Shown here piece by piece: positions 1,978 to 23,269 of a stretch of 36,668 nucleotides of DNA. Numbering within the stretch: position 1 is the first letter of the stretch; every line of letters starts with the position of its first letter. The DNA is from an uncultured Pseudomonadales bacterium (GTDB lineage Bacteria; Patescibacteriota; Microgenomatia; UBA1400; PJMF01). The notes beneath the pieces were generated by a model. It did not search any database. It had not been told where the DNA came from and worked only from the letters and a program-made list of their open reading frames with translations. Both the position numbers and the translations under genes were made by a program. The stretch covers positions 11,753-48,420 of the forward strand of contig CAYREI010000002.1 in NCBI GenBank assembly GCA_964423285.1, in the 5' to 3' direction.

Positions 1978-2847
1978 ATGCCTGATAAATTTACCGCGAC
2001 TTGGGTTTCTCATAGTTCAATTAGTGATTTTTTGAAATGTCCCCGAGCTTATTATTTAAATAATGTATATAAAAGCCAGGAGACAGGACGAAAAATACAA
2101 CTCATGAGCGCTCCTTTAGCATTGGGAGCGGCAGTGCATGAGGTTATTGAAGCTCTATCTATTATTCCTACTCAGGAAAGATTTAAAAAATCGTTGGTAG
2201 AGAAGCTCAATGATGTTTGGCATAAATATCATGGTAAAAAGGGTGGTTTTAGCAGTGAAGAGCATGAGAGAAAATATAAAAAAAGAGGTGAGGAAATGCT
2301 ATTGAAGGTCATGAATAATCCCGGTCCTTTGAAAAATCTAGCAATTAAAATTAAAGAAGATTTACCTCAATATTGGTTATCTGAAGACGATAATATTATT
2401 TTGTGTGGAAAAGTTGATTGGCTAGAGTATTTACCTGATTTAGATGGAGTCCATATTATTGATTTTAAAACTGGTAAAAAAGAAGAGGCAAACGGATCAC
2501 TTCAGTTACCAATTTATCATCTCTTAGTTCACAATACCCAACATAGAAAAGTAATTAAGGCCAGCTATTGGTATATAGACCTTCACGACAAACCAGTTGA
2601 GCAAAAATTACCAGATTTAATTAAGGCTCATGAACAGGTTTTAGAAATTTCTAAAAAGATTAAATTAGCTCGTAAATTAGAAATATTTAAATGTCCTCAG
2701 GGTGATGGAGGATGTCAATTTTGCAAACCATTTGAAAAAGTGATAGCAGGAGAAGCAGAAAAAGTAGGAGTTAATGATTACAATCAGGATGTCTATGTGC
2801 TGATTAACAATGAAGAAACAAAAAAAAATCAGAGTGTAGTTTTATAG
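1978..2847 (+). CDS. PD-(D/E)XK nuclease, RecB/AddB/Cas4-like, probable Fe-S staple
   Basis: SHS..S.F..CPR, G.AVH, GKVD, IIDFKTG, QL.IY motifs; C-terminal CPQGDGGCQFC plus N-terminal Cys. Confidence 0.85.
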   Translation: MPDKFTATWVSHSSISDFLKCPRAYYLNNVYKSQETGRKIQLMSAPLALGAAVHEVIEALSIIPTQERFKKSLVEKLNDVWHKYHGKKGGFSSEEHERKYKKRGEEMLLKVMNNPGPLKNLAIKIKEDLPQYWLSEDDNIILCGKVDWLEYLPDLDGVHIIDFKTGKKEEANGSLQLPIYHLLVHNTQHRKVIKASYWYIDLHDKPVEQKLPDLIKAHEQVLEISKKIKLARKLEIFKCPQGDGGCQFCKPFEKVIAGEAEKVGVNDYNQDVYVLINNEETKKNQSVVL

Positions 2848-4007
2848 TTAATTTTTTTATCTACAATTAATAAAATTAGGCCTATTGTCATGACTGCTGC
2901 TGCAGTTAAGCCTAAGCTTCCAGGGAAGAAATTTTGAATTAAGAAACCACCTGCTAGTGGACCAATAATCTGAGATATACTTCCTAGCGATTGAGTGATC
3001 CCCATAATTTCACCCTGTTTATTTGCTGGTGCCTGACGAGAAATATGAGAGGTTAGGCTTGGTCTAAGTAAGCTAGCTCCAAATGAAAATAAGACTGTGA
3101 CGATGTTTAATAGATAACTCAGTTTTATCCAAGGAGTAAGAGCTAAAGCAAAAATTATAGCCATTGCACCAATAATACGAAGCTTTTCTTCATCAATAAC
3201 ATTCAATAATTTGGGTAGAATTAAGCTTCTAATAAGGATACTTACTCCACCAATAATGGCAAAGGTATAACCGATATCCTTAGCAGTAAAATTAAATTGT
3301 CTTTCAGCATAAAGAGCAAAGCTGCTAGCCCAAAGTCCGTGGGTAAGAACATAAAAGAAAAACTCCCAAATGGGCAGAGAAATTTTAGGTTCTGCAGTCA
3401 GCAGTTTAAATTGTTTGAATTTAAATATATCCCATGACCACACAAAATTAGTAGATTTAGTCACTGTTTCTGGTAGATAGAAATGGGTAGTAATAATAGT
3501 CAAACCCGCCATACCAGCAGCCAAAAAAGAGGGCAGAGCATAACTAAATTGAGAAAGATATCCTCCTATAGCCGGACCAATAAAAAACCCAATACTAAAA
3601 GCAATCCCAGTAAGACTAAAAATTTTAGTTCGATCTTTCTTTGGTGTGATATCGCTCAGATATGCTTGGGCTATAGTAGCGTTGCTTCCAAGTAAGCCAT
3701 CAACGATTCTAGATAGGAATAGCATCCATAGGCTATTAGCAAAACCTAAAATTAGAAAGCTGATGAGCGTAGATAGTTGAGACAGCATTAGAAGTGGTTT
3801 TCTTCCATACGTGTCACTAAGTTTTCCCATAATAGGAGCAGAAAGAAATTGAAATAGAGAAAAAGTCATTAATACCGATCCAACTTGAAATGGAGAAGCA
3901 CCCAGGGTTTGGGCATAGAAAGGTAAAAAAGGTAGAATTAGTGAAAATCCTAAAACTTCGGTAATCTTAATTACTGAAATAATAGTGTATTCTCGGCGCC
4001 AGGTCAT
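2829..4007 (-). CDS. MFS transporter, DHA1 (TetA-like) family
   Basis: About 12 TM helices, motif A GKLSDTYGRK, motif C GFFIGPAIGG. Confidence 0.88.
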   Translation of the reverse strand: MTWRREYTIISVIKITEVLGFSLILPFLPFYAQTLGASPFQVGSVLMTFSLFQFLSAPIMGKLSDTYGRKPLLMLSQLSTLISFLILGFANSLWMLFLSRIVDGLLGSNATIAQAYLSDITPKKDRTKIFSLTGIAFSIGFFIGPAIGGYLSQFSYALPSFLAAGMAGLTIITTHFYLPETVTKSTNFVWSWDIFKFKQFKLLTAEPKISLPIWEFFFYVLTHGLWASSFALYAERQFNFTAKDIGYTFAIIGGVSILIRSLILPKLLNVIDEEKLRIIGAMAIIFALALTPWIKLSYLLNIVTVLFSFGASLLRPSLTSHISRQAPANKQGEIMGITQSLGSISQIIGPLAGGFLIQNFFPGSLGLTAAAVMTIGLILLIVDKKINYKTTL

Positions 4008-4068: not shown

Positions 4069-4827
4069 CTAGAGATATTTTTTAATTATTTGTTCTATTT
4101 GAACTAATGGTAAAGCACCACTAATTAATTCATACTCTCCGTCTGCTGTCATTAAAATAGTACCGGGAGTACCAGAAATTCCAGCTGCAGCGCCACCGTC
4201 AAATTGAGAAGCGACTATCTCAGTCATCTCCCCACTTTCAAGACAATTTTTAACAGTATCTATATTAGCGTTACTAGCCTTGATACCTGCATTAATAGCC
4301 TCAGGACTAAGTTTCCCACCTAATTTTTCATTTTGTGCGAAAATTTCATTTGTGTATTTCCAGAAAGCGTCGTTACCATTCTGGCTAGCAACACATTCTG
4401 CAGCTTCAGCTGCCTGTTGGGCATTAGGATGAAAGCTAAGTGGATAGTGACGAAACACATAAGCTATTTGATCGCCATATTTTTCCACTATTTGTTTCAT
4501 TGTGGGGCGGAATCTTTGACAGAAAGGGCATTCATAATCTGAGTATTCAACTAAATAAATTTTGGGATTTTTAGCTCCTTGAATGTGATCACTTTCAGAG
4601 ATTTCAGGCATTTTATCTAAATTATTTTTTTCATCAATTACTCCAGCAACTTTTTCAGTGGGTTCTTCTTGGACTATGTGTTCATCTTCCTTTATAGCTT
4701 TATTTTCCATCCAAAGAGTACCGATAAAAAATCCGCCGATAGAAAAAATTACTGCTACAAAAATTATTCCAAAATTGCTAATTAAAAATTGGATTGTGCT
4801 GTGGGGAGAGTATTTGCTATCTGTCAT
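4069..4827 (-). CDS. dsbA: Membrane-anchored DsbA/BdbD-family thiol-disulfide oxidoreductase
   Basis: N-terminal TM, YSDYECPFC, FRHYPL, cis-Pro loop GTPG; SD GAAAGGA at 4840-4834. Confidence 0.88.
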   Translation of the reverse strand: MTDSKYSPHSTIQFLISNFGIIFVAVIFSIGGFFIGTLWMENKAIKEDEHIVQEEPTEKVAGVIDEKNNLDKMPEISESDHIQGAKNPKIYLVEYSDYECPFCQRFRPTMKQIVEKYGDQIAYVFRHYPLSFHPNAQQAAEAAECVASQNGNDAFWKYTNEIFAQNEKLGGKLSPEAINAGIKASNANIDTVKNCLESGEMTEIVASQFDGGAAAGISGTPGTILMTADGEYELISGALPLVQIEQIIKKYL

Positions 4828-4846
4828 AAGAATTCCTTTCCGAGAA

Positions 4847-4863
4847 TACTACGGAGTGTAGTG
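4847..4863. promoter_or_regulatory. Putative BlaI-family operator over dsbA -10 box
   Basis: TACTAC-GGAGT-GTAGTG inverted repeat with 5-nt spacer. Confidence 0.7.
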
Positions 4864-4884
4864 TTTATTAACGATGATTGTCAA
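4855..4884 (-). promoter_or_regulatory. sigma70 promoter of dsbA
   Basis: TTGACA (4884-4879) - 18 nt - TACACT (4860-4855). Confidence 0.7.
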
Positions 4885-4902
4885 CTATTGGAAATAGTAA
4901 AT

Positions 4903-5241
4903 TTATTGCAATTCTTCTTTCAACGCTTGAATAGCTAAATCGCCAAAACTACTAATTAAATTTTGGATAGTACAGTGAGTGACTGTTTTTATAAATTGGT
5001 ATTTAGATTTTTTAGCTTCATAGTGATAACTACGTCCTTCTTTTTTTCTGGTTAAGATTTTTTTCTTTACTAAACGCTTCATAATTGTCATGACCGTGGT
5101 ATAAGCAAGTTTTTCTGATTTTTTTCGAGATTTATTTAGCTCTAACAAAACACATTTAACGCTCGGACAATTTTCAGCCCAAACAATCTCTAAAATTTTT
5201 TTCTCTAATGGACCCAAATAGCAACTTTTGTTAGTTAACAT
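4903..5241 (-). CDS. BlaI/MecI/CopY family transcriptional repressor
   Basis: LGPLE..ILE.VW, LAYTTVMT.MKRL..K.IL.R.K.GR.Y.Y winged helix. Start probably ATG 5241 (alternative 5250), not TTG 5277, which is the -35 box. Confidence 0.9.
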   Translation of the reverse strand: MLTNKSCYLGPLEKKILEIVWAENCPSVKCVLLELNKSRKKSEKLAYTTVMTIMKRLVKKKILTRKKEGRSYHYEAKKSKYQFIKTVTHCTIQNLISSFGDLAIQALKEELQ

Positions 5242-5257
5242 ACTAGACATTGTAGCC
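5241..5257. promoter_or_regulatory. Second, degenerate BlaI-type operator over the blaI -10 box (autoregulation)
   Basis: TACTAG-ACATT-GTAGCC, same register relative to the -10 hexamer as the dsbA site. Confidence 0.55.
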
Positions 5258-5277
5258 TTGTCGTAAAAACAGTACAA
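5249..5277 (-). promoter_or_regulatory. sigma70 promoter of blaI-like gene (likely leaderless)
   Basis: TTGTAC (5277-5272) - 17 nt - TACAAT (5254-5249) - 7 nt - ATG 5241. Confidence 0.6.
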
Positions 5278-5332
5278 GTTTTTAAAGAAGATACTTAACT
5301 CTCTTACCAGGCTATGTTAGAATGATCGTCTT

Positions 5333-5896
5333 ATGGTTGATGAACTGAATGAATTTAAAAGAGGTGATATTATTGTTAGATTTGGGGTCGTTCATAAAAT
5401 TCTTAAAGTTGAAAAAATTGAAAACGATGATGGTAAAAAGGACAAAATAATTCATTTTGAACCTGTCTATAAAACTCGAAGCAATGAAACTTTAAAACTT
5501 TCAATTCCCTTAAATAACATTGATAAAACTACTATTAGACTACCAGTTTTAAAAACTGTTCTTAATGATGAGTTGAAATTTTTACGTCAAGGGGAATATG
5601 AACGTACCCCATTTAATCAATTAAAGGTTAAGCGAATTATTAGTACTAATGAGCTTCATGATGTGACGCAGGTACTTAAAACTCTTTGGGAAGAAAAAAG
5701 AGATGAAGAAAGAAATTTTACTATTAGTAAACGAAATACTTTTAATATGGTAATGACGCGCTTTAAACAAGAGACAGCATATGTTTTGGGTATGGAATTA
5801 TTGGAAGCTGAAAAAAAAGTTGAATCTGCGCTTGACACTGGTTGGAATAGACAACTTAAGCTTCGTCAGAGTAAAAAATCGTCAAATAAAGATTAA
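5333..5896 (+). CDS. carD: CarD-like transcription factor (divergent)
   Basis: FKRGD.IV..G...I..VE, L.LSIP..N.....IR RNAP-interaction-domain pattern; helical C-domain V..VLK.LW...R.FT...R.......F..E.A.VL. Confidence 0.65.
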   Translation: MVDELNEFKRGDIIVRFGVVHKILKVEKIENDDGKKDKIIHFEPVYKTRSNETLKLSIPLNNIDKTTIRLPVLKTVLNDELKFLRQGEYERTPFNQLKVKRIISTNELHDVTQVLKTLWEEKRDEERNFTISKRNTFNMVMTRFKQETAYVLGMELLEAEKKVESALDTGWNRQLKLRQSKKSSNKD

Positions 5897-5941
5897 TTAC
5901 TACTCATTATCGTTTTTGCAATCGGGTGATAAACTAAATCA

Positions 5942-7198
5942 ATGAAATTCTTTAAAGCATTTCTACTTGCGACTACTTTTTTCTTCACTTCTAGTATTAA
6001 TGTGTCTGCTCGACAACAACCAGAACTGATAATTAACTTTTTTTATTCAGAAATTTGTCCTCATTGCGAACATGAAGCTCCTTTTATCGCGGCATTGGAT
6101 GAAAAATATGATCGAGTTGGATTACATGCTTTTGAAGTTTCAGGGAATAGAGCCAATGCAGTTTTATTGAAAATGGTAGGTGAAAAATTAGATATGCAGA
6201 TTAGGGGAGTACCTTTTACCCTCATTGGCACTAAAACTACTACGGGTTATTTGGATGATGAAAATACTGGTCAACAATTAGAGGAGCAGGTTAAACAATG
6301 TTTATCGGACTGGGATATTTCTTGTGAAGATCAGTTGGCTGAATTTTTAGAATTAGCGCCAGCTGAAGAAACACAACCAGCTACAATCGAAGAAGAACCA
6401 ACTGTGGCTGAAGCCAAAGAAGAGCCAGTTGTGGTTGAAGCTAAACCAAATAAGGAAATTACTTTACCATTATTCGGCAAACTTAACCCCGATAATCTAT
6501 CTTTACCAGTATTAACGTTCATGATTGCTTTACTAGATGGATTTAATCCCTGTGCTATGTGGACTCTAGTTTTTTTAATTGGTTTATTACTGGGGATGAA
6601 AGATCGAAAGAAAATGTGGATATTAGGAATTACCTTCATTCTTGCATCTGGGTTGGTTTATTTTTTATTTCTTTCTGCTTGGCTAAATTTATTTTTATTC
6701 CTGGGCATGGTTACTTGGGTAAGGATAACGATCGCTTTAGTGGCTTTGGGAGCCAGCATCTATAGTTTGCACGATTATATGACTAATAAAAACGCAGCCT
6801 GTAAAGTTACTGGGACTGAGAAACGTCAAAAAGTTTTTACCAGATTAAAAAAGTTAGTAGAGCAGAAGCATCTCTGGATAGCTTTGATAGGAATTATTCT
6901 TTTAGCATTTGCAGTTAATGTGGTGGAGTTATTTTGTAGCGCTGGATTGCCAGCTATTTATACCCAAATACTTTCACTTACTGAATTATCTAGTTTGCAG
7001 TACTATTCATATTTATTATTTTATATTGTTATTTTTATATTTGATGATTTAGCTGTATTTGTAATCGCGATGATAACTTTAAAAATGACCGGAATTGAAA
7101 GCAAATATTCTCACTTTTCTCGCTTAATCGGGGGTTTACTAATGTTGATTATTGGAGTTTTGTTACTTTTTAAACCTGAATGGTTAATGTTTGGTTAG
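5942..7198 (+). CDS. Exported thioredoxin/glutaredoxin domain fused to DsbD/CcdA-like transmembrane domain
   Basis: Signal peptide, FFYSEICPHC, RGVPF, then DGFNPCAM...VELFCSAGLP TM cysteine pair and about 6-7 TM helices. Confidence 0.85.
   Translation: MKFFKAFLLATTFFFTSSINVSARQQPELIINFFYSEICPHCEHEAPFIAALDEKYDRVGLHAFEVSGNRANAVLLKMVGEKLDMQIRGVPFTLIGTKTTTGYLDDENTGQQLEEQVKQCLSDWDISCEDQLAEFLELAPAEETQPATIEEEPTVAEAKEEPVVVEAKPNKEITLPLFGKLNPDNLSLPVLTFMIALLDGFNPCAMWTLVFLIGLLLGMKDRKKMWILGITFILASGLVYFLFLSAWLNLFLFLGMVTWVRITIALVALGASIYSLHDYMTNKNAACKVTGTEKRQKVFTRLKKLVEQKHLWIALIGIILLAFAVNVVELFCSAGLPAIYTQILSLTELSSLQYYSYLLFYIVIFIFDDLAVFVIAMITLKMTGIESKYSHFSRLIGGLLMLIIGVLLLFKPEWLMFG
6365..6445 (+). repeat. Imperfect 27-bp tandem repeat (about 3 units) coding an acidic linker
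   Basis: EETQPATIE / EEPTVAEAK / EEPVVVEAK; units 6392-6418 and 6419-6445 are closely similar. Confidence 0.6.
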
Positions 7199-7200
7199 TC

Positions 7201-7725
7201 CTATTTTATTTCAGGCAATACACCTAAAGAATCATTAAAACGATTAACAAAATTAAATAAACCAATCACGCTAGTGAGCTCAACTAATTCTTCATCATTA
7301 AATTCCGATTTAACTCTTGTCATAATTTCAGAACCGATATTATAAGCATGGTTTGTAGCAGCCTGGGCATATTCAATGGCGATTTTTTCTCTTTCATTGT
7401 AAGTTTGTTCTAGGTTTTGAACTTCATTTTTGGCTAAACCAAATCCCATTAATTGCATTTTAGAAACACTCACACAGAATTCGCATTTATTAAGCTCAGA
7501 TACATAATAGGCGATTTTCCATTTAAGTTGAGAATCAAGCGGGGCATCGTCCATAGTAGCTTGAAAAAGAGTAAAAAATCCAACCAAGACATCTTCACAG
7601 TTGGCCATAACTCTCATCCATTTGGGGACACTACCAGTTTTATTTTTAATCTGTTCAAAAATTTCTTTAGCCTGACCCCCGACCTCTTCGTCAGTAACTA
7701 GATGGACTAATGGTTGATTTGTCAT
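7201..7725 (-). CDS. AhpD/carboxymuconolactone decarboxylase-like alkylhydroperoxidase
   Basis: IA..VS.LNKCEFC CxxC, F.DEELVEL...IG.FNF.NR.ND.LG; start moved to ATG 7725 behind SD GGAGAG. Confidence 0.82.
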   Translation of the reverse strand: MTNQPLVHLVTDEEVGGQAKEIFEQIKNKTGSVPKWMRVMANCEDVLVGFFTLFQATMDDAPLDSQLKWKIAYYVSELNKCEFCVSVSKMQLMGFGLAKNEVQNLEQTYNEREKIAIEYAQAATNHAYNIGSEIMTRVKSEFNDEELVELTSVIGLFNFVNRFNDSLGVLPEIK

Positions 7726-7779
7726 AAAATTTCTCTCCAGCTGCTTTATGTATCTCAACATATAGCATAAAATACAGTT

Positions 7780-8214
7780 ATGCAAAAAGATACTTCATTT
7801 GGTTTGGTGCCCATGTATAGAGATGGTGATAAAATTGAATTTTTATTGACCCAGCATATTTTAGGTCATTGGGCTTTCCCCAAGGGTCATGCAGAGAAAG
7901 AGGAGTCTCCTCTAGAAACCGCTCAGCGTGAATTTGAAGAAGAAACTGGCATCATGCAGTATCGGGTCGATGAGTCGATAATTTTTCAAGAAGAGTATTA
8001 TCCGCAGCAGGATGGTCAGACTTTACACAAAACTGTGACATATTATCCAGCTTGGGTGGGTGATAAAAAGGTCAAGACTCAAGAGTCAGAAGTGGCTGAT
8101 TACGGCTGGTTTGAGTATAAGCAGGCAATGAAAAAAATTACTTTTTCAGGAAGTAAAAAAATATTAAGAGAAGTGAAAAAATATCTTTTTAGTTCAATCC
8201 CCGCAAGCCAGTAA
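7780..8214 (+). CDS. Nudix hydrolase, Ap4A hydrolase-like
   Basis: GHW.FPKGHAEKEESPLETAQREFEEETGI Nudix box, K.V.YY. Confidence 0.88.
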   Translation: MQKDTSFGLVPMYRDGDKIEFLLTQHILGHWAFPKGHAEKEESPLETAQREFEEETGIMQYRVDESIIFQEEYYPQQDGQTLHKTVTYYPAWVGDKKVKTQESEVADYGWFEYKQAMKKITFSGSKKILREVKKYLFSSIPASQ

Positions 8215-21112: not shown

Positions 21113-23269
21113 ATGGGTCTACCACCAGTTTTTAGAACCAAACAGTCAGTTCCTTCTTCATATATTACTATTTTGCTATCTGACTCTAACGTTCAAGCAG
21201 CTTTATGGCAGCTTGACAATCAAGGAATTACCATTTTAAAGAAATCATCTGTTCACAAATATGGTGATGATGAACAAGCCGTTACTCAGGCTGATATAGC
21301 CCTTCAGAACTTAGGCAAACAATCAGAGGAAGTTAATGATGTAATCTTTGGTTTACCACATACTTGGGTTGATAAACAAGGCGTGACAGCAATAAAGAAA
21401 CCTTTATTAAAAACAATTACTGAAGAATTAAGTTTAAAAGCAGTTGGCTTCGTGGTGACTTCTGAAGCAGTGGCAAAGCATTTAATAGCTGAAAATCCTC
21501 GGCTTTCTATGCTCTTGGTGGAGTTTAGTCAGTATGAGTTATATCTAAGTTTAATTAGTCAAGGCAAACTGATTAGTACTAAATATGTAGGACGGTCGGG
21601 TGAGACTATGGCTGATATGGCTGAGGCTTTAGCAAGACTTAACGCTCATCAGGAAGAAAAAATTAAGTTGCCAGTAAAAATAGTAATTTCTTCTTTAGAT
21701 CTCAACGATTCGGAACTTAAAGATCAGCAACAATTATTACTTGATCACAATTGGGTTGATTCACATTCATTTACTCATCCACCCACAGTAGATTTATTAG
21801 ATCAAGAAATTATTCTAGAGGCAGTTGTCAAGCAAGGGAAGAGTCCCGCTATTGGGCAATCAGTCGTTAAATCTCAAGTTATCGTATCAGCTCCAATAGT
21901 TGCAGAGCAATCAAAGACAACCGCCAAAATTGAAAAAAGCACTTTAGCCGTGGAAGTTAAACCTCAAAAAACTGTAGCTACTAGTTATGGAATACCAGTT
22001 AGATTAGATGATTTTGATAAAAAAATCCAACCTGAAATCAAGTCACAAGATAGGGTAAACTTACCACATTCAATTGATTCAAAAAAGAAAGTATCTTCAA
22101 AGATAAAAATGAAGTTTTATAGTTGGTTCAACGAACATAAATCATTTGCTATTGGTGGTTTTTTTGCAGGTATATTGGCTTTAGTGGTAATAGTTGGAGC
22201 ATGGTTAAATATGGGAGTTGAAGCTGTTGTTGAATTATCACTAGCGGTTGAGTCAATTTCAAAAGAAACCACTATTACTCTTAACCCTGATTATGATAGC
22301 ACTGACGTTGATGAACTGGTTTTAGCAGCCCACACTATTGAGAAAAAAGTTTCGGATAAAAAGACCAAGGAAACAACCGGAGTTAAAGTTGTCGGTGATA
22401 AAGCTACTGGTAAGATTACTCTTTATAATAAAACAGATGGTGAAAAACTTTTTGATAAAGACACTAAATTAACCAAGGGTGATTTGGTCTTTACTTTAAA
22501 TGAAGAAGTTAGAGTTGCTTCAGCCAGTGATAGTATTGATAAGAAGGAATATGGTAAGACTGAAACTGAAGTAACTGCTACTAATATTGGAGCAGATCAT
22601 AATTTAGAAAAAGAAACTGAGCTACAAGTGGCTAGTTTTGATCCTGGTACATATGCCGCTGTTGTTGTAGAAGTTTTTACAGGTGGCTCTAGTCGTGAAG
22701 TTAGAGTTGTTTCTGAGGGCGATAAAGATCAATTAGTGAAAGATTTACGGGAAAAATTACTAGAAGAAGCTCAAAGAGATATTGAAGAAAATTTGGATGA
22801 AGGCGAGTATATTGCTTCAGCTAGTATTTACCAAGTAAGTGAACAAAAACTTGATGCAGAAATAGGTGATGAAATTGGTGCAGTGACACTTGATTTATCA
22901 ATTATTGTAAAAGTTTTGACTTATAAAACAGAAGATTTAAAGCCCTTGGCACAAAAAGTGCTTGAGGATGATATTCCCGAAGGATACACTTTAGCTAATA
23001 GCGATCCACAAATTATGTCAGCTTTAGATCAGGAAGCTTCAGGCTCTGGAGCAATCTACTTGACGGTTAATATTACATCAGAAGCCAAACCAGATTTAAA
23101 TTGGGATGAACTTAAGCAAGATATTCTAGGTAAAAGAATCAATGAAGCCAAACAAACTTTAGTAGCTAAGGACAGTATTGATTCGGTTGAAATTAATTTA
23201 ATTCCCAGTATAGCTACTAAGCTTTATCCCCGCATTCCCAAAGATCCTGTTAAGATAAAGATAAGGTGA
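21113..23269 (+). CDS. Bitopic protein: degenerate FtsA/actin-like N-domain, TM, baseplate J/gp47-like extracytoplasmic domain
   Basis: ITILLSDSNVQAALW and LVEFS...L.LS.I..GK resemble the two FtsA/PilM beta hairpins; TM about 22145-22206; TG.K.VG.KATG.IT.YN, V.A..IG...N, FTGG.SR.V.VVS..D. Start probably ATG 21113. Confidence 0.6.
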   Translation: MGLPPVFRTKQSVPSSYITILLSDSNVQAALWQLDNQGITILKKSSVHKYGDDEQAVTQADIALQNLGKQSEEVNDVIFGLPHTWVDKQGVTAIKKPLLKTITEELSLKAVGFVVTSEAVAKHLIAENPRLSMLLVEFSQYELYLSLISQGKLISTKYVGRSGETMADMAEALARLNAHQEEKIKLPVKIVISSLDLNDSELKDQQQLLLDHNWVDSHSFTHPPTVDLLDQEIILEAVVKQGKSPAIGQSVVKSQVIVSAPIVAEQSKTTAKIEKSTLAVEVKPQKTVATSYGIPVRLDDFDKKIQPEIKSQDRVNLPHSIDSKKKVSSKIKMKFYSWFNEHKSFAIGGFFAGILALVVIVGAWLNMGVEAVVELSLAVESISKETTITLNPDYDSTDVDELVLAAHTIEKKVSDKKTKETTGVKVVGDKATGKITLYNKTDGEKLFDKDTKLTKGDLVFTLNEEVRVASASDSIDKKEYGKTETEVTATNIGADHNLEKETELQVASFDPGTYAAVVVEVFTGGSSREVRVVSEGDKDQLVKDLREKLLEEAQRDIEENLDEGEYIASASIYQVSEQKLDAEIGDEIGAVTLDLSIIVKVLTYKTEDLKPLAQKVLEDDIPEGYTLANSDPQIMSALDQEASGSGAIYLTVNITSEAKPDLNWDELKQDILGKRINEAKQTLVAKDSIDSVEINLIPSIATKLYPRIPKDPVKIKIR

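Follow-up and report, generated by a model that had tools for sequence, protein, structure and literature searches.

A protease-less BlaI/PetR-type repressor with twin operators probably controls dsbA and its own gene in an uncultured Patescibacteriota genome

The window analyzed here, a stretch of 36,668 nucleotides from an uncultured bacterium of the Patescibacteriota, carries two neighboring genes, blaI and dsbA, that very probably form a small regulatory unit. Judged from their sequences, blaI encodes a BlaI-type repressor, dsbA encodes a membrane-anchored thiol-disulfide oxidoreductase, and the promoter of each bears a palindromic operator to which the repressor would bind. The sequence-only reading of this DNA had proposed such a repressor acting through a pair of operators, one at its own promoter and one at that of dsbA, and sites conserved in relatives now support the proposal. 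The two genes lie 75 bp apart in the source genome, and the elements concerned are the following.

4069-4827, minus strand: gene for a DsbA-like membrane-anchored thiol-disulfide oxidoreductase of 252 aa, with a CPFC active site and an N-terminal membrane anchor (PF13462, E 2e-20; PF01323, E 7e-12).
4847-4863: dsbA operator (site 1), TACTAC-GGAGT-GTAGTG, TACTACGGAGTGTAGTG, with 1 mismatch to the palindrome, spanning the -10 box and the likely transcription start.
4855-4884, minus strand: predicted dsbA promoter, TTGACA (4884..4879), an 18-nt spacer and TACACT (4860..4855), followed by an AAGGA ribosome site.
4903-5241, minus strand: blaI, gene for a BlaI/PetR-type winged-helix repressor (Penicillinase_R) of 112 aa (PF03965, 70.6 bits).
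5241-5257: auto-operator (site 2), TACTAG-ACATT-GTAGCC, TACTAGACATTGTAGCC, with 3 mismatches, overlapping the -10 box TACAAT in the register of site 1.
5249-5277, minus strand: predicted blaI promoter, TTGTAC (5277..5272), a 17-nt spacer and TACAAT (5254..5249), with 7 nt between the -10 box and the ATG.
5898-5914: possible weak third site (a half-site), TACTAC-TCATT-ATCGTT, TACTACTCATTATCGTT, with 3 mismatches, ahead of a gene for a Trx-DsbD-like protein (Trx, thioredoxin).

The source genome (G000), a 675-kb assembly of 66 contigs with 35% GC (guanine plus cytosine) and 94% completeness, contains a single PF03965 gene. Its product exceeds the family cut-off of 22.6 bits threefold (E 1.9e-19, profile positions 1-98 of 115), and a profile search of the PDB retrieves the Mycobacterium tuberculosis BlaI (2g9w) at E 4e-20, with the recognition helix AYTTVM common to both proteins. 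The AlphaFold2 model (mean predicted local distance difference test score, pLDDT, 88.5) comprises three helices, a two-strand wing and a long C-terminal helix; its best Foldseek matches are 1xsd (BlaI-DNA), 1okr (MecI) and 2g9w, with template modeling scores of 0.56-0.63, and the DNA-binding domain fits 1p6r with a root-mean-square deviation of 2.3 Å over 72 columns. BlaI-family identity is thus borne out by family profile, fold and PDB profile alike. The narrower models stay below their cut-offs: the NCBIfam BlaI and MecI models give 28 and 23.5 bits against 250, and the CopY model TIGR02698 gives 42.5 bits against 121.95. With the start that the open reading frame (ORF) finder assigns to the repressor, TTG 5277, the match to the family profile does not set in before residue 21; a length of 112 aa, with a start matching the ATG at 5241, is found in most database relatives.

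The repressor presumably binds as a dimer to the 17-bp palindromes, each of which contains a -10 hexamer (TACAAT or TACACT) and the transcription start; bound to one palindrome on its own promoter and to the other on the dsbA promoter, it would repress both genes. The sequences and coordinates of the twin sites, and their overlap in one register with the -10 boxes of dsbA and blaI, are as first described. The dsbA promoter is the best promoter-like match between positions 4000 and 6000 (10/12), in a scan whose overall yield of 9 matches, with 8.1 expected, is not above that of shuffled sequences; the blaI promoter is missing from the scan list because its weak -35 hexamer, TTGTAC, matches at only 3/6 positions. 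Base 5241 of the auto-operator is the A of the repressor's ATG.

The ideal palindrome, TACTAC-N5-GTAGTA, was compared with the whole 675-kb genome, and the expected counts were taken from a first-order Markov simulation. The genome holds 1 palindrome with 0 mismatches (0.05 expected) and 5 with at most 1 (0.75 expected), so that site 1, with its single mismatch, is beyond chance. The window holds 26 three-mismatch sites and the genome 367, where about 197 are expected; sites 2 and 3, with three mismatches each, are therefore not beyond chance when taken alone. Site 2 regains support because near-perfect orthologous sites hold the same position in relatives that keep the repressor. Site 3, which had been put forward as a weaker operator ahead of the Trx-DsbD-like gene, is present there, and its first 16 bases are identical (16/16) in G003, the sole other genus genome examined that has an adjoining Trx-DsbD-like gene; it is, however, a half-site only and by itself not above chance. 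As a conserved half-site, it may add the Trx-DsbD-like gene to the regulon.

Conservation in relatives carries most of the argument for the operators. Among 60 related genomes searched, the repressor was found in 14. Three of these (G001-G003) belong to the same genus, at 69-79% identity; two other metagenome contigs merely repeat the G001 and G002 proteins, and a further one, L134, is counted as distinct. The order carD-like gene, blaI, dsbA is kept in G001-G003, and both intergenic regions bear sites. On the blaI side, GACTACAATCTGTAGTA abuts the ATG in G001, G002, G003 and L134, behind TTGnnn-17-TACAAT, and the same design recurs in G027, the nearest outgroup, and in G034, where it reads TTGCAA-17-TACTAT-7-ATG. 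The auto sites of G001-G003, L134 and G027 have 1 mismatch each. The blaI mRNA is probably leaderless, because the 7-nt distance between the -10 box and the ATG is also found in G001-G003, L134 and G034. On the dsbA side, CACTACACTyCGTAGTA lies within TTGACA-18-TACACT on the promoters of G001-G003, with hexamers and spacing identical in G001-G003, G004 and G027; the operator itself has counterparts in G001, G002, G003, L134 and G027, and also in G004, which lacks the repressor. Across the five distinct genomes or contigs of the window's clade (G000-G003 and L134), no dsbA site has more than 1 mismatch, and the auto site keeps within this limit in four, the exception being G000 with its 3 mismatches. 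The outgroup G027, in which blaI is linked to a gene for an M56 protease, has three sites, one of them at blaI; the other two are perfect, and they lie between the protease gene and dsbA and between a DoxX gene and a gene for a plastocyanin/azurin-like lipoprotein. A motif scan of the genome and its relatives, suggested together with the operator proposal, thus finds the sites conserved in fixed positions in relatives with the repressor.

The arrangement had been thought possibly new to the candidate phyla radiation (CPR), a supposition that does not survive a wider survey: a blaI-M56-dsbA module is widespread, and the locus represents a derived branch of it without the protease. The survey comprises 80 loci from species genomes, 37 low-GC (282 kb) and 43 other (284 kb), with downstream genes labeled by local profiles built from Pfam-checked examples. 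In distant relatives, blaI is followed by a gene for a protein of 276-397 aa matching Peptidase_M56 and/or Peptidase_M48 (E <=0.003), and often then by a DsbA gene; M56 is above its cut-off in 6/8 such proteins tested. An M56 gene directly follows blaI in 54/80 loci, including 32/37 of the low-GC ones; 6 of the 26 loci without it end within about 220 bases of blaI. DsbA is encoded within three genes of blaI in 16/37 low-GC loci and in 0/43 others. Fourteen of these 16 genes stand behind M56, and the other two, in L050 and L051 (loci of the G034 kind), occur without it. In the low-GC loci, blaI is usually succeeded by the gene for a sensor-less M56 protease and then by a DsbA or other outward-facing thiol-redox gene bearing a separate operator.

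The operator follows the same division. With at most one mismatch, it occurs 62 times in the 282 kb of low-GC loci vs 6 times in the 284 kb of the others. An auto site is present in 25/37 low-GC loci, a site before a downstream non-protease (effector) gene also in 25/37, and both in 19/37; DsbA genes have a site within 150 nt upstream in 13/16 cases. In gene sense the consensus is nACTAC-N5-GTAGTA, and the spacer opens with AAT or ACT in 39/53 sites, which makes the TACAAT/TACACT -10 box part of the operator. The envelope thiol-disulfide theme recognized in the window extends to the relatives: besides DsbA, the same operator precedes genes for CcdA, DsbD_2-cupredoxin fusions, GILT-like proteins, CxxC membrane proteins of about 400 aa, and membrane proteins of 91-100 aa ending in GGC. 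Five loci (L064, L070, L076, L090 and L119) share a recurrent pair after the M56 gene and under the operator, namely a single-pass membrane protein of 91-100 aa ending in ...PQSMVGGC and a membrane protein of about 400 aa with PGCQDC or PSCVDC; neither has a Pfam family. Many low-GC CPR-type contigs with this module among L048-L126 are labeled 'uncultured Gammaproteobacteria' or 'Pseudomonadales', and their close relatives are labeled Daviesbacteria, Woesebacteria or Microgenomates; the former labels look unreliable.

None of the relatives' M56 proteases has a penicillin-binding domain; in the place of BlaR1's penicillin sensor they have outside tails rich in cysteine. All 14 DsbA-linked proteases have one Cys in the first outside segment, and in about 10 of them the tail that follows the last membrane helix contains a C-x4-C-x3-C-type motif. 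Among proteases with a detectable tail, tail cysteines are found in 26/26 low-GC proteins (three or four Cys in 18) vs 1/17 at GC >=0.6, where tails are called by a crude membrane-helix finder and the topology follows from the positive-inside rule and the description of PetP, a related protease. Such tails would fit a sensor of the envelope thiol state or of a thiophilic metal.

In the window's own clade, the protease is missing. The sequence-only reading had seen no BlaR or M56 peptidase nearby, which holds for the window, and a search of the genome for an unlinked copy was equally negative: PF05569 (M56) has no match in the 94%-complete G000 assembly and none above cut-off in G001-G003, giving M56 genes in 0/4 genus genomes that bear the repressor. 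Weak 17-bit PF05569 matches in G001 and G002 fall in frames of about 300 aa, like the HtpX of G000, which is full-length (NF003425, 330 bits) and is the product of the single M48-clan gene of that genome. In a tree of the repressors, the window's clade is monophyletic, with 99 in the Shimodaira-Hasegawa-like approximate likelihood ratio test (SH-aLRT), and is sister to M56-linked G027 (88), within a group of other M56-linked rows and Cys-free orphans (83); this topology implies two protease losses. It is likely, then, that the window's module originated by protease loss. With the membrane protease lost from the lineage, the repressor would have to be released some other way.

Two changes in the repressor accompany the missing protease. 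The protein has four cysteines in its 112 aa (C7, C25, C30 and C89) and ends in ...ALKEELQ, without a C-terminal Cys cluster. The count of four and the absence of a C-terminal CxC are as first described, and only C25 and C30 (C25-P-S-V-K-C30 in the window) are invariant, as part of a Cys25-Pro-x-Val-x-Cys30 motif kept in 16/16 clade members. Cysteines at both positions occur in 0/80 of the other family loci, most of which have no Cys at all, and the motif is missing from the two nearest outgroup sequences. In the AlphaFold2 model, where helix 2 spans residues 28-36, C30 belongs to the first turn of this helix and C25 to the loop just ahead of it; the N-terminus of a helix is a common site of reactive thiols. 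The other change concerns the cleavage site. The NF pair of Staphylococcus aureus BlaI/MecI, which we take to be the scissile bond, aligns in the PDB profile search with the conserved aF of the family profile. Phe occupies this position in 77/80 family loci; the window has A106-L107, and Leu is found in 16/16 clade members. The length of the C-terminal tail was also considered as a sign of protease loss and rejected, as 3-aa tails also occur with M56.

These changes make a thiol sensor plausible on circumstantial grounds, since the Cys pair is unique to the clade and the scissile Phe is replaced; direct thiol-based sensing by the repressor is a serious possibility that falls somewhat short of an even chance. 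The best overall explanation, slightly favored as a whole, combines repression, protease loss and release on the repressor itself. The ancestor would have been a cassette of blaI, a sensor-less M56 protease gene and dsbA, of the kind common in small low-GC (CPR-type) genomes, and its protease, with outward cysteines, presumably cleaved the repressor at the conserved Phe. In the genus, the protease gene would have gone, Phe would have been replaced by Leu, and Cys25-Pro-x-Val-x-Cys30 would have been gained at the N-terminus of helix 2 of the helix-turn-helix domain. The DNA-binding domain could then be distorted, and dsbA derepressed, when the Cys pair is oxidized or takes up a thiophilic metal such as Cu(I). 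The sensing cysteines would in effect have moved from the outside tail of the protease to the repressor, creating a one-component switch that works through a Cys25/Cys30 disulfide or Cu(I); this most specific part of the explanation is also its most tentative.

Several observations weigh against this explanation. The two remaining cysteines are not fixed, C7 being present in 14/16 and C89 in 11/16 clade members, and the invariance of C25 and C30 says little by itself because the clade is shallow, with 40/112 columns invariant. A second protease-less clade (G034, L050 and L051) keeps the Phe and has no Cys, so that protease loss needs no cysteine replacement. The tree is a quick maximum-likelihood one of 84 rows and 126 columns, from which one divergent fused row was dropped. 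The window's auto-operator deviates from the clade consensus in both half-sites and is, by its sequence, degenerate in comparison with the rest of the clade. Members of the genus can do without the repressor: no PF03965 match exists in G004 (99% complete), whose carD-like gene adjoins a dsbA with an intact promoter and operator, and the G005 locus lacks blaI and retains the operator at only 9/12 positions. Finally, disulfide stress has no better claim than copper to be the signal.

The G004/G005 series also backs the link between operator and repressor, and it implies that a site can outlive its regulator. The genus as a whole offers a natural series of switch dismantling, from a repressor with both operators, through a degenerate auto-operator, to a deleted repressor with the operator kept and, at last, a decayed operator. 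The deletion junctions lie between the carD-like gene and dsbA, at L213:1341-1482 in G004 and L216:851-984 in G005; the G004 junction contains a 12-base direct duplication (TTATTCCAACGA twice).

Three other readings compete with a sensing repressor. Proteolysis might still remove the repressor, through an unlinked housekeeping protease (HtpX, which belongs to the same clan as M56, or FtsH, Lon or Clp), with the cysteines taking no part in sensing. G000 indeed has the full-length HtpX, and lon with a CIRCE-like element, and the Cys-free, protease-less G034 clade indicates that such repressors persist without M56 or cysteines; yet the replacement of the scissile Phe by Leu in all 16 clade members, when 77 of the 80 other loci keep it, speaks against cleavage, the literature searched contains no link between HtpX and BlaI-type repressors, and the reading is on balance unlikely. 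We also doubt that the repressor answers to no signal and is a plain negative autoregulator that damps dsbA and itself, the decaying remnant of a switch with a structural or neutral Cys pair. The erosion within the genus fits such a remnant: G004 and G005 have lost blaI, the latter with a decayed operator as well, and G000 has a degenerate auto-operator. Among so many invariant columns, moreover, the invariance of the cysteines is not special. What makes the remnant improbable is that two rare residues arose together at a helix N-terminus and were kept as pairwise identity fell to about 55%, that the gene is intact, and that both operators are kept in 4/5 clade genomes.

A more radical objection, that the palindromes are not repressor sites and are chance matches, bare promoter elements or recombination sites, can claim that sites 2 and 3 alone are within chance, that another contig bears a perfect copy ahead of a xerC/D-like gene and that G004 keeps its dsbA site without a PF03965 gene. 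It is nevertheless highly improbable: the 282 kb around blaI homologues contain 62 sites with at most one mismatch against 5 in the whole 675-kb genome, in many genera the sites occupy fixed positions, on the blaI promoter and ahead of an effector gene, and G005, whose locus lacks blaI, retains only a decayed site.

As to the signal that a sensing repressor would read, several features suggest copper: cupredoxin genes, a Cys-rich peptide gene behind an operator-like site in G001-G003 (see below) and the precedent of PetR. The copper-linked genes under the operator in relatives are that of the plastocyanin/azurin-like lipoprotein in G027 and those of the DsbD-cupredoxin fusions. HMA and cupredoxin genes are absent from G000, G001 and G002, and metal ATPase genes occur only in G003 and G027, where CopA stands behind an ArsR-type gene. 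Control of a copper pump in the manner of CopY was considered and rejected, as no site with at most 3 mismatches lies upstream of CopA or CopZ in G003 and G027 and G000 has no HMA gene; the sole 3-mismatch match in this check falls inside a coding frame in L130. The visible G000 regulon is purely thiol-redox, and the signal is accordingly left as 'thiol-reactive: oxidant or copper'.

The surroundings of blaI and dsbA in the window comprise four further genes.

2829-4007, minus strand: gene for an MFS transporter.
5333-5896, plus strand: 187-aa gene divergent from blaI, a lead as CarD/CdnL-like by language-model (Atlas) features only (0.93).
5942-7198, plus strand: gene for the 418-aa Trx-DsbD-like protein, with a thioredoxin-like (CPHC) N-domain and a multi-pass membrane domain with NPC and FCSAGLP motifs (weak Trx Pfam matches).
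7201-7785, minus strand: AhpD/carboxymuconolactone-decarboxylase-like 'peroxidase-related' gene with a CEFC motif (TIGR01926, 61 bits, under cut-off).

The carD-like gene, whose product has no Pfam and no NCBIfam match, is a direct neighbor of blaI or dsbA in G000-G005 and is found close to blaI in G034; in the window it has an extended -10 promoter, TTAACT-17-TG-n-TAGAAT, at 5295-5323. For the Trx-DsbD-like protein, NCBIfam gives no match, and none of the 168 genes surveyed downstream of blaI encodes a homologue. Together with dsbA, this Trx-membrane fusion and the AhpD-like gene make up a small thiol-redox neighborhood; no operator-like site lies ahead of the AhpD-like gene at 7201-7785.

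Operator-like palindromes occur elsewhere in these genomes as well. An exact third site, ACTACTTGCTGTAGT, is found in G001-G003 about 55 nt ahead of a gene for a peptide of 25-32 aa with 7 or 8 Cys (MCGSCGC...), opposite lon (L037:1518-1681, L038:1490-1644 and L039:1491-1632). The peptide is metallothionein-like by composition, with no NCBIfam match and no Atlas match >=0.8, and has no counterpart in G000, where a tRNA gene occupies the place. Directly upstream of lon, a CIRCE-like inverted repeat, TTAGCATTC-N9-GATTGCTAA (G000 C8 ~21960-21990, and L037-L039), is shared by four genomes of the genus and points to heat-shock control of lon of the HrcA type.

The sole perfect palindrome of G000, TACTAC-TTAAT-GTAGTA, lies on contig C1 (C1:34292-34308, L020:1500-1516), 200 bp upstream of the xerC/D-like integrase gene, and has equivalents in G002, G003 and G027. 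To its right, about 1.2 kb contains no ORF of at least 60 aa and no Rfam match. It was rejected as the xer promoter, as xer has its own conserved promoter, TTGCTA-17-TAGTAT, further down, with a hairpin between. Another operator-like palindrome lies inside an rdgB/HAM1-like gene (G000 C7:24574-24590, and likewise G001:C9 and G003:C47); it encodes Leu-His/Gln-x-Val-Val and is probably a coding coincidence. G003 has a further site 14 nt ahead of a nitroreductase gene.

Among known systems, the canonical BlaI/BlaR1 and MecI/MecR1 switches of S. aureus and Bacillus licheniformis (PDB 1xsd, 1sd4, 1okr and 1p6r) share with the window the Pfam family and fold and a palindrome overlapping the promoter; their dimeric repressor and their autoregulation correspond to what is presumed for the window. 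By contrast, the window has no BlaR1 or MecR1, no penicillin-binding sensor and no beta-lactamase target; the cognate M56 gene and the scissile x-Phe of the canonical switch are both absent, NF having become AL. The best solved relative is the M. tuberculosis BlaI (Rv1846c, 2g9w), which has a neighboring sensor-less BlaR. Its reported binding motif, TAC[GT]AC-N5-GT[AC]GTA, has the same layout as the operator here; no sequence for it was found in passages of PMC12565901, PMC3814196 and PMC4757040.

CopY/TcrY of the Firmicutes form a protease-independent branch of the family, in which release depends on metal chemistry at the repressor's own cysteines, the principle proposed here. CopY carries a C-terminal Cys-rich metal site motif; this cluster is absent from the window's repressor, and G000 has no copper ATPase gene. 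The cop box is TACAnnTGTA (PMC7253601), with a spacing unlike that of the operator here. If the sensing proposal is true, the BlaI family would have in the window's clade, next to CopY, a second branch that works independently of a protease, and its sensor would sit in the DNA-binding domain.

In the literature searched, no description was found of BlaI-type control of DsbA or of the BlaI family in Patescibacteria, and a preprint on the PetRP system was the sole relevant match. BlaI-type repressors are known for antibiotic resistance and for this one cyanobacterial copper case, and the signal is unknown for most sensor-less members. Atypical BlaIR systems are an open topic, as recent reports on CenIR of Clostridioides difficile (PMC13492132) and on Pseudomonas aeruginosa (preprint, 10.64898/2026.08.03.742534) indicate. 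In the locus and its relatives, a defined operator is linked with a coherent set of envelope thiol-redox genes, in ultra-small uncultured bacteria of whose regulation hardly anything is understood, and the protease-less clade is a simple system (a 112-aa protein, a 17-bp site and two cysteines) for asking whether the BlaI family senses redox state or metal directly.

The nearest known counterpart is the copper-responsive PetR/PetP pair of cyanobacteria, and the repressor is most like a PetR-type repressor minus its protease. In Synechocystis sp. PCC 6803, PetR is a BlaI/CopY-family regulator with the core GAC-N5-GTC that is degraded in a PetP- and copper-dependent manner, and PetP is a sensor-less M48/M56 protease (bioRxiv 10.1101/2020.07.31.226407). 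The pairing of a BlaI/CopY-type regulator with a sensor-less M48/M56 membrane protease matches the ancestral state of the window's family. The operator of PetR, at the petE promoter that it represses, lies between the -10 and -35 boxes, and the two halves of its inverted repeat are separated by 5 nt. The spacing is equal and the bases differ, GAC-N5-GTC against TAC-N5-GTA, the half-sites here being ACTAC/GTAGT. The likeness extends to the plastocyanin/azurin-like gene under a perfect operator in G027. The reported targets of PetR are plastocyanin and cytochrome c6, whereas that of the window's repressor would be DsbA, and PetP has two conserved Met, whereas the proteases of the relatives here have outward-facing cysteines. 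PetR, like the ancestral state here, has a conserved Phe at its processing site, whereas the window's clade has neither the Phe nor the protease gene: a PetP-type partner stands beside the regulator in G027 and in 32/37 low-GC loci, and is absent in the window's genus.

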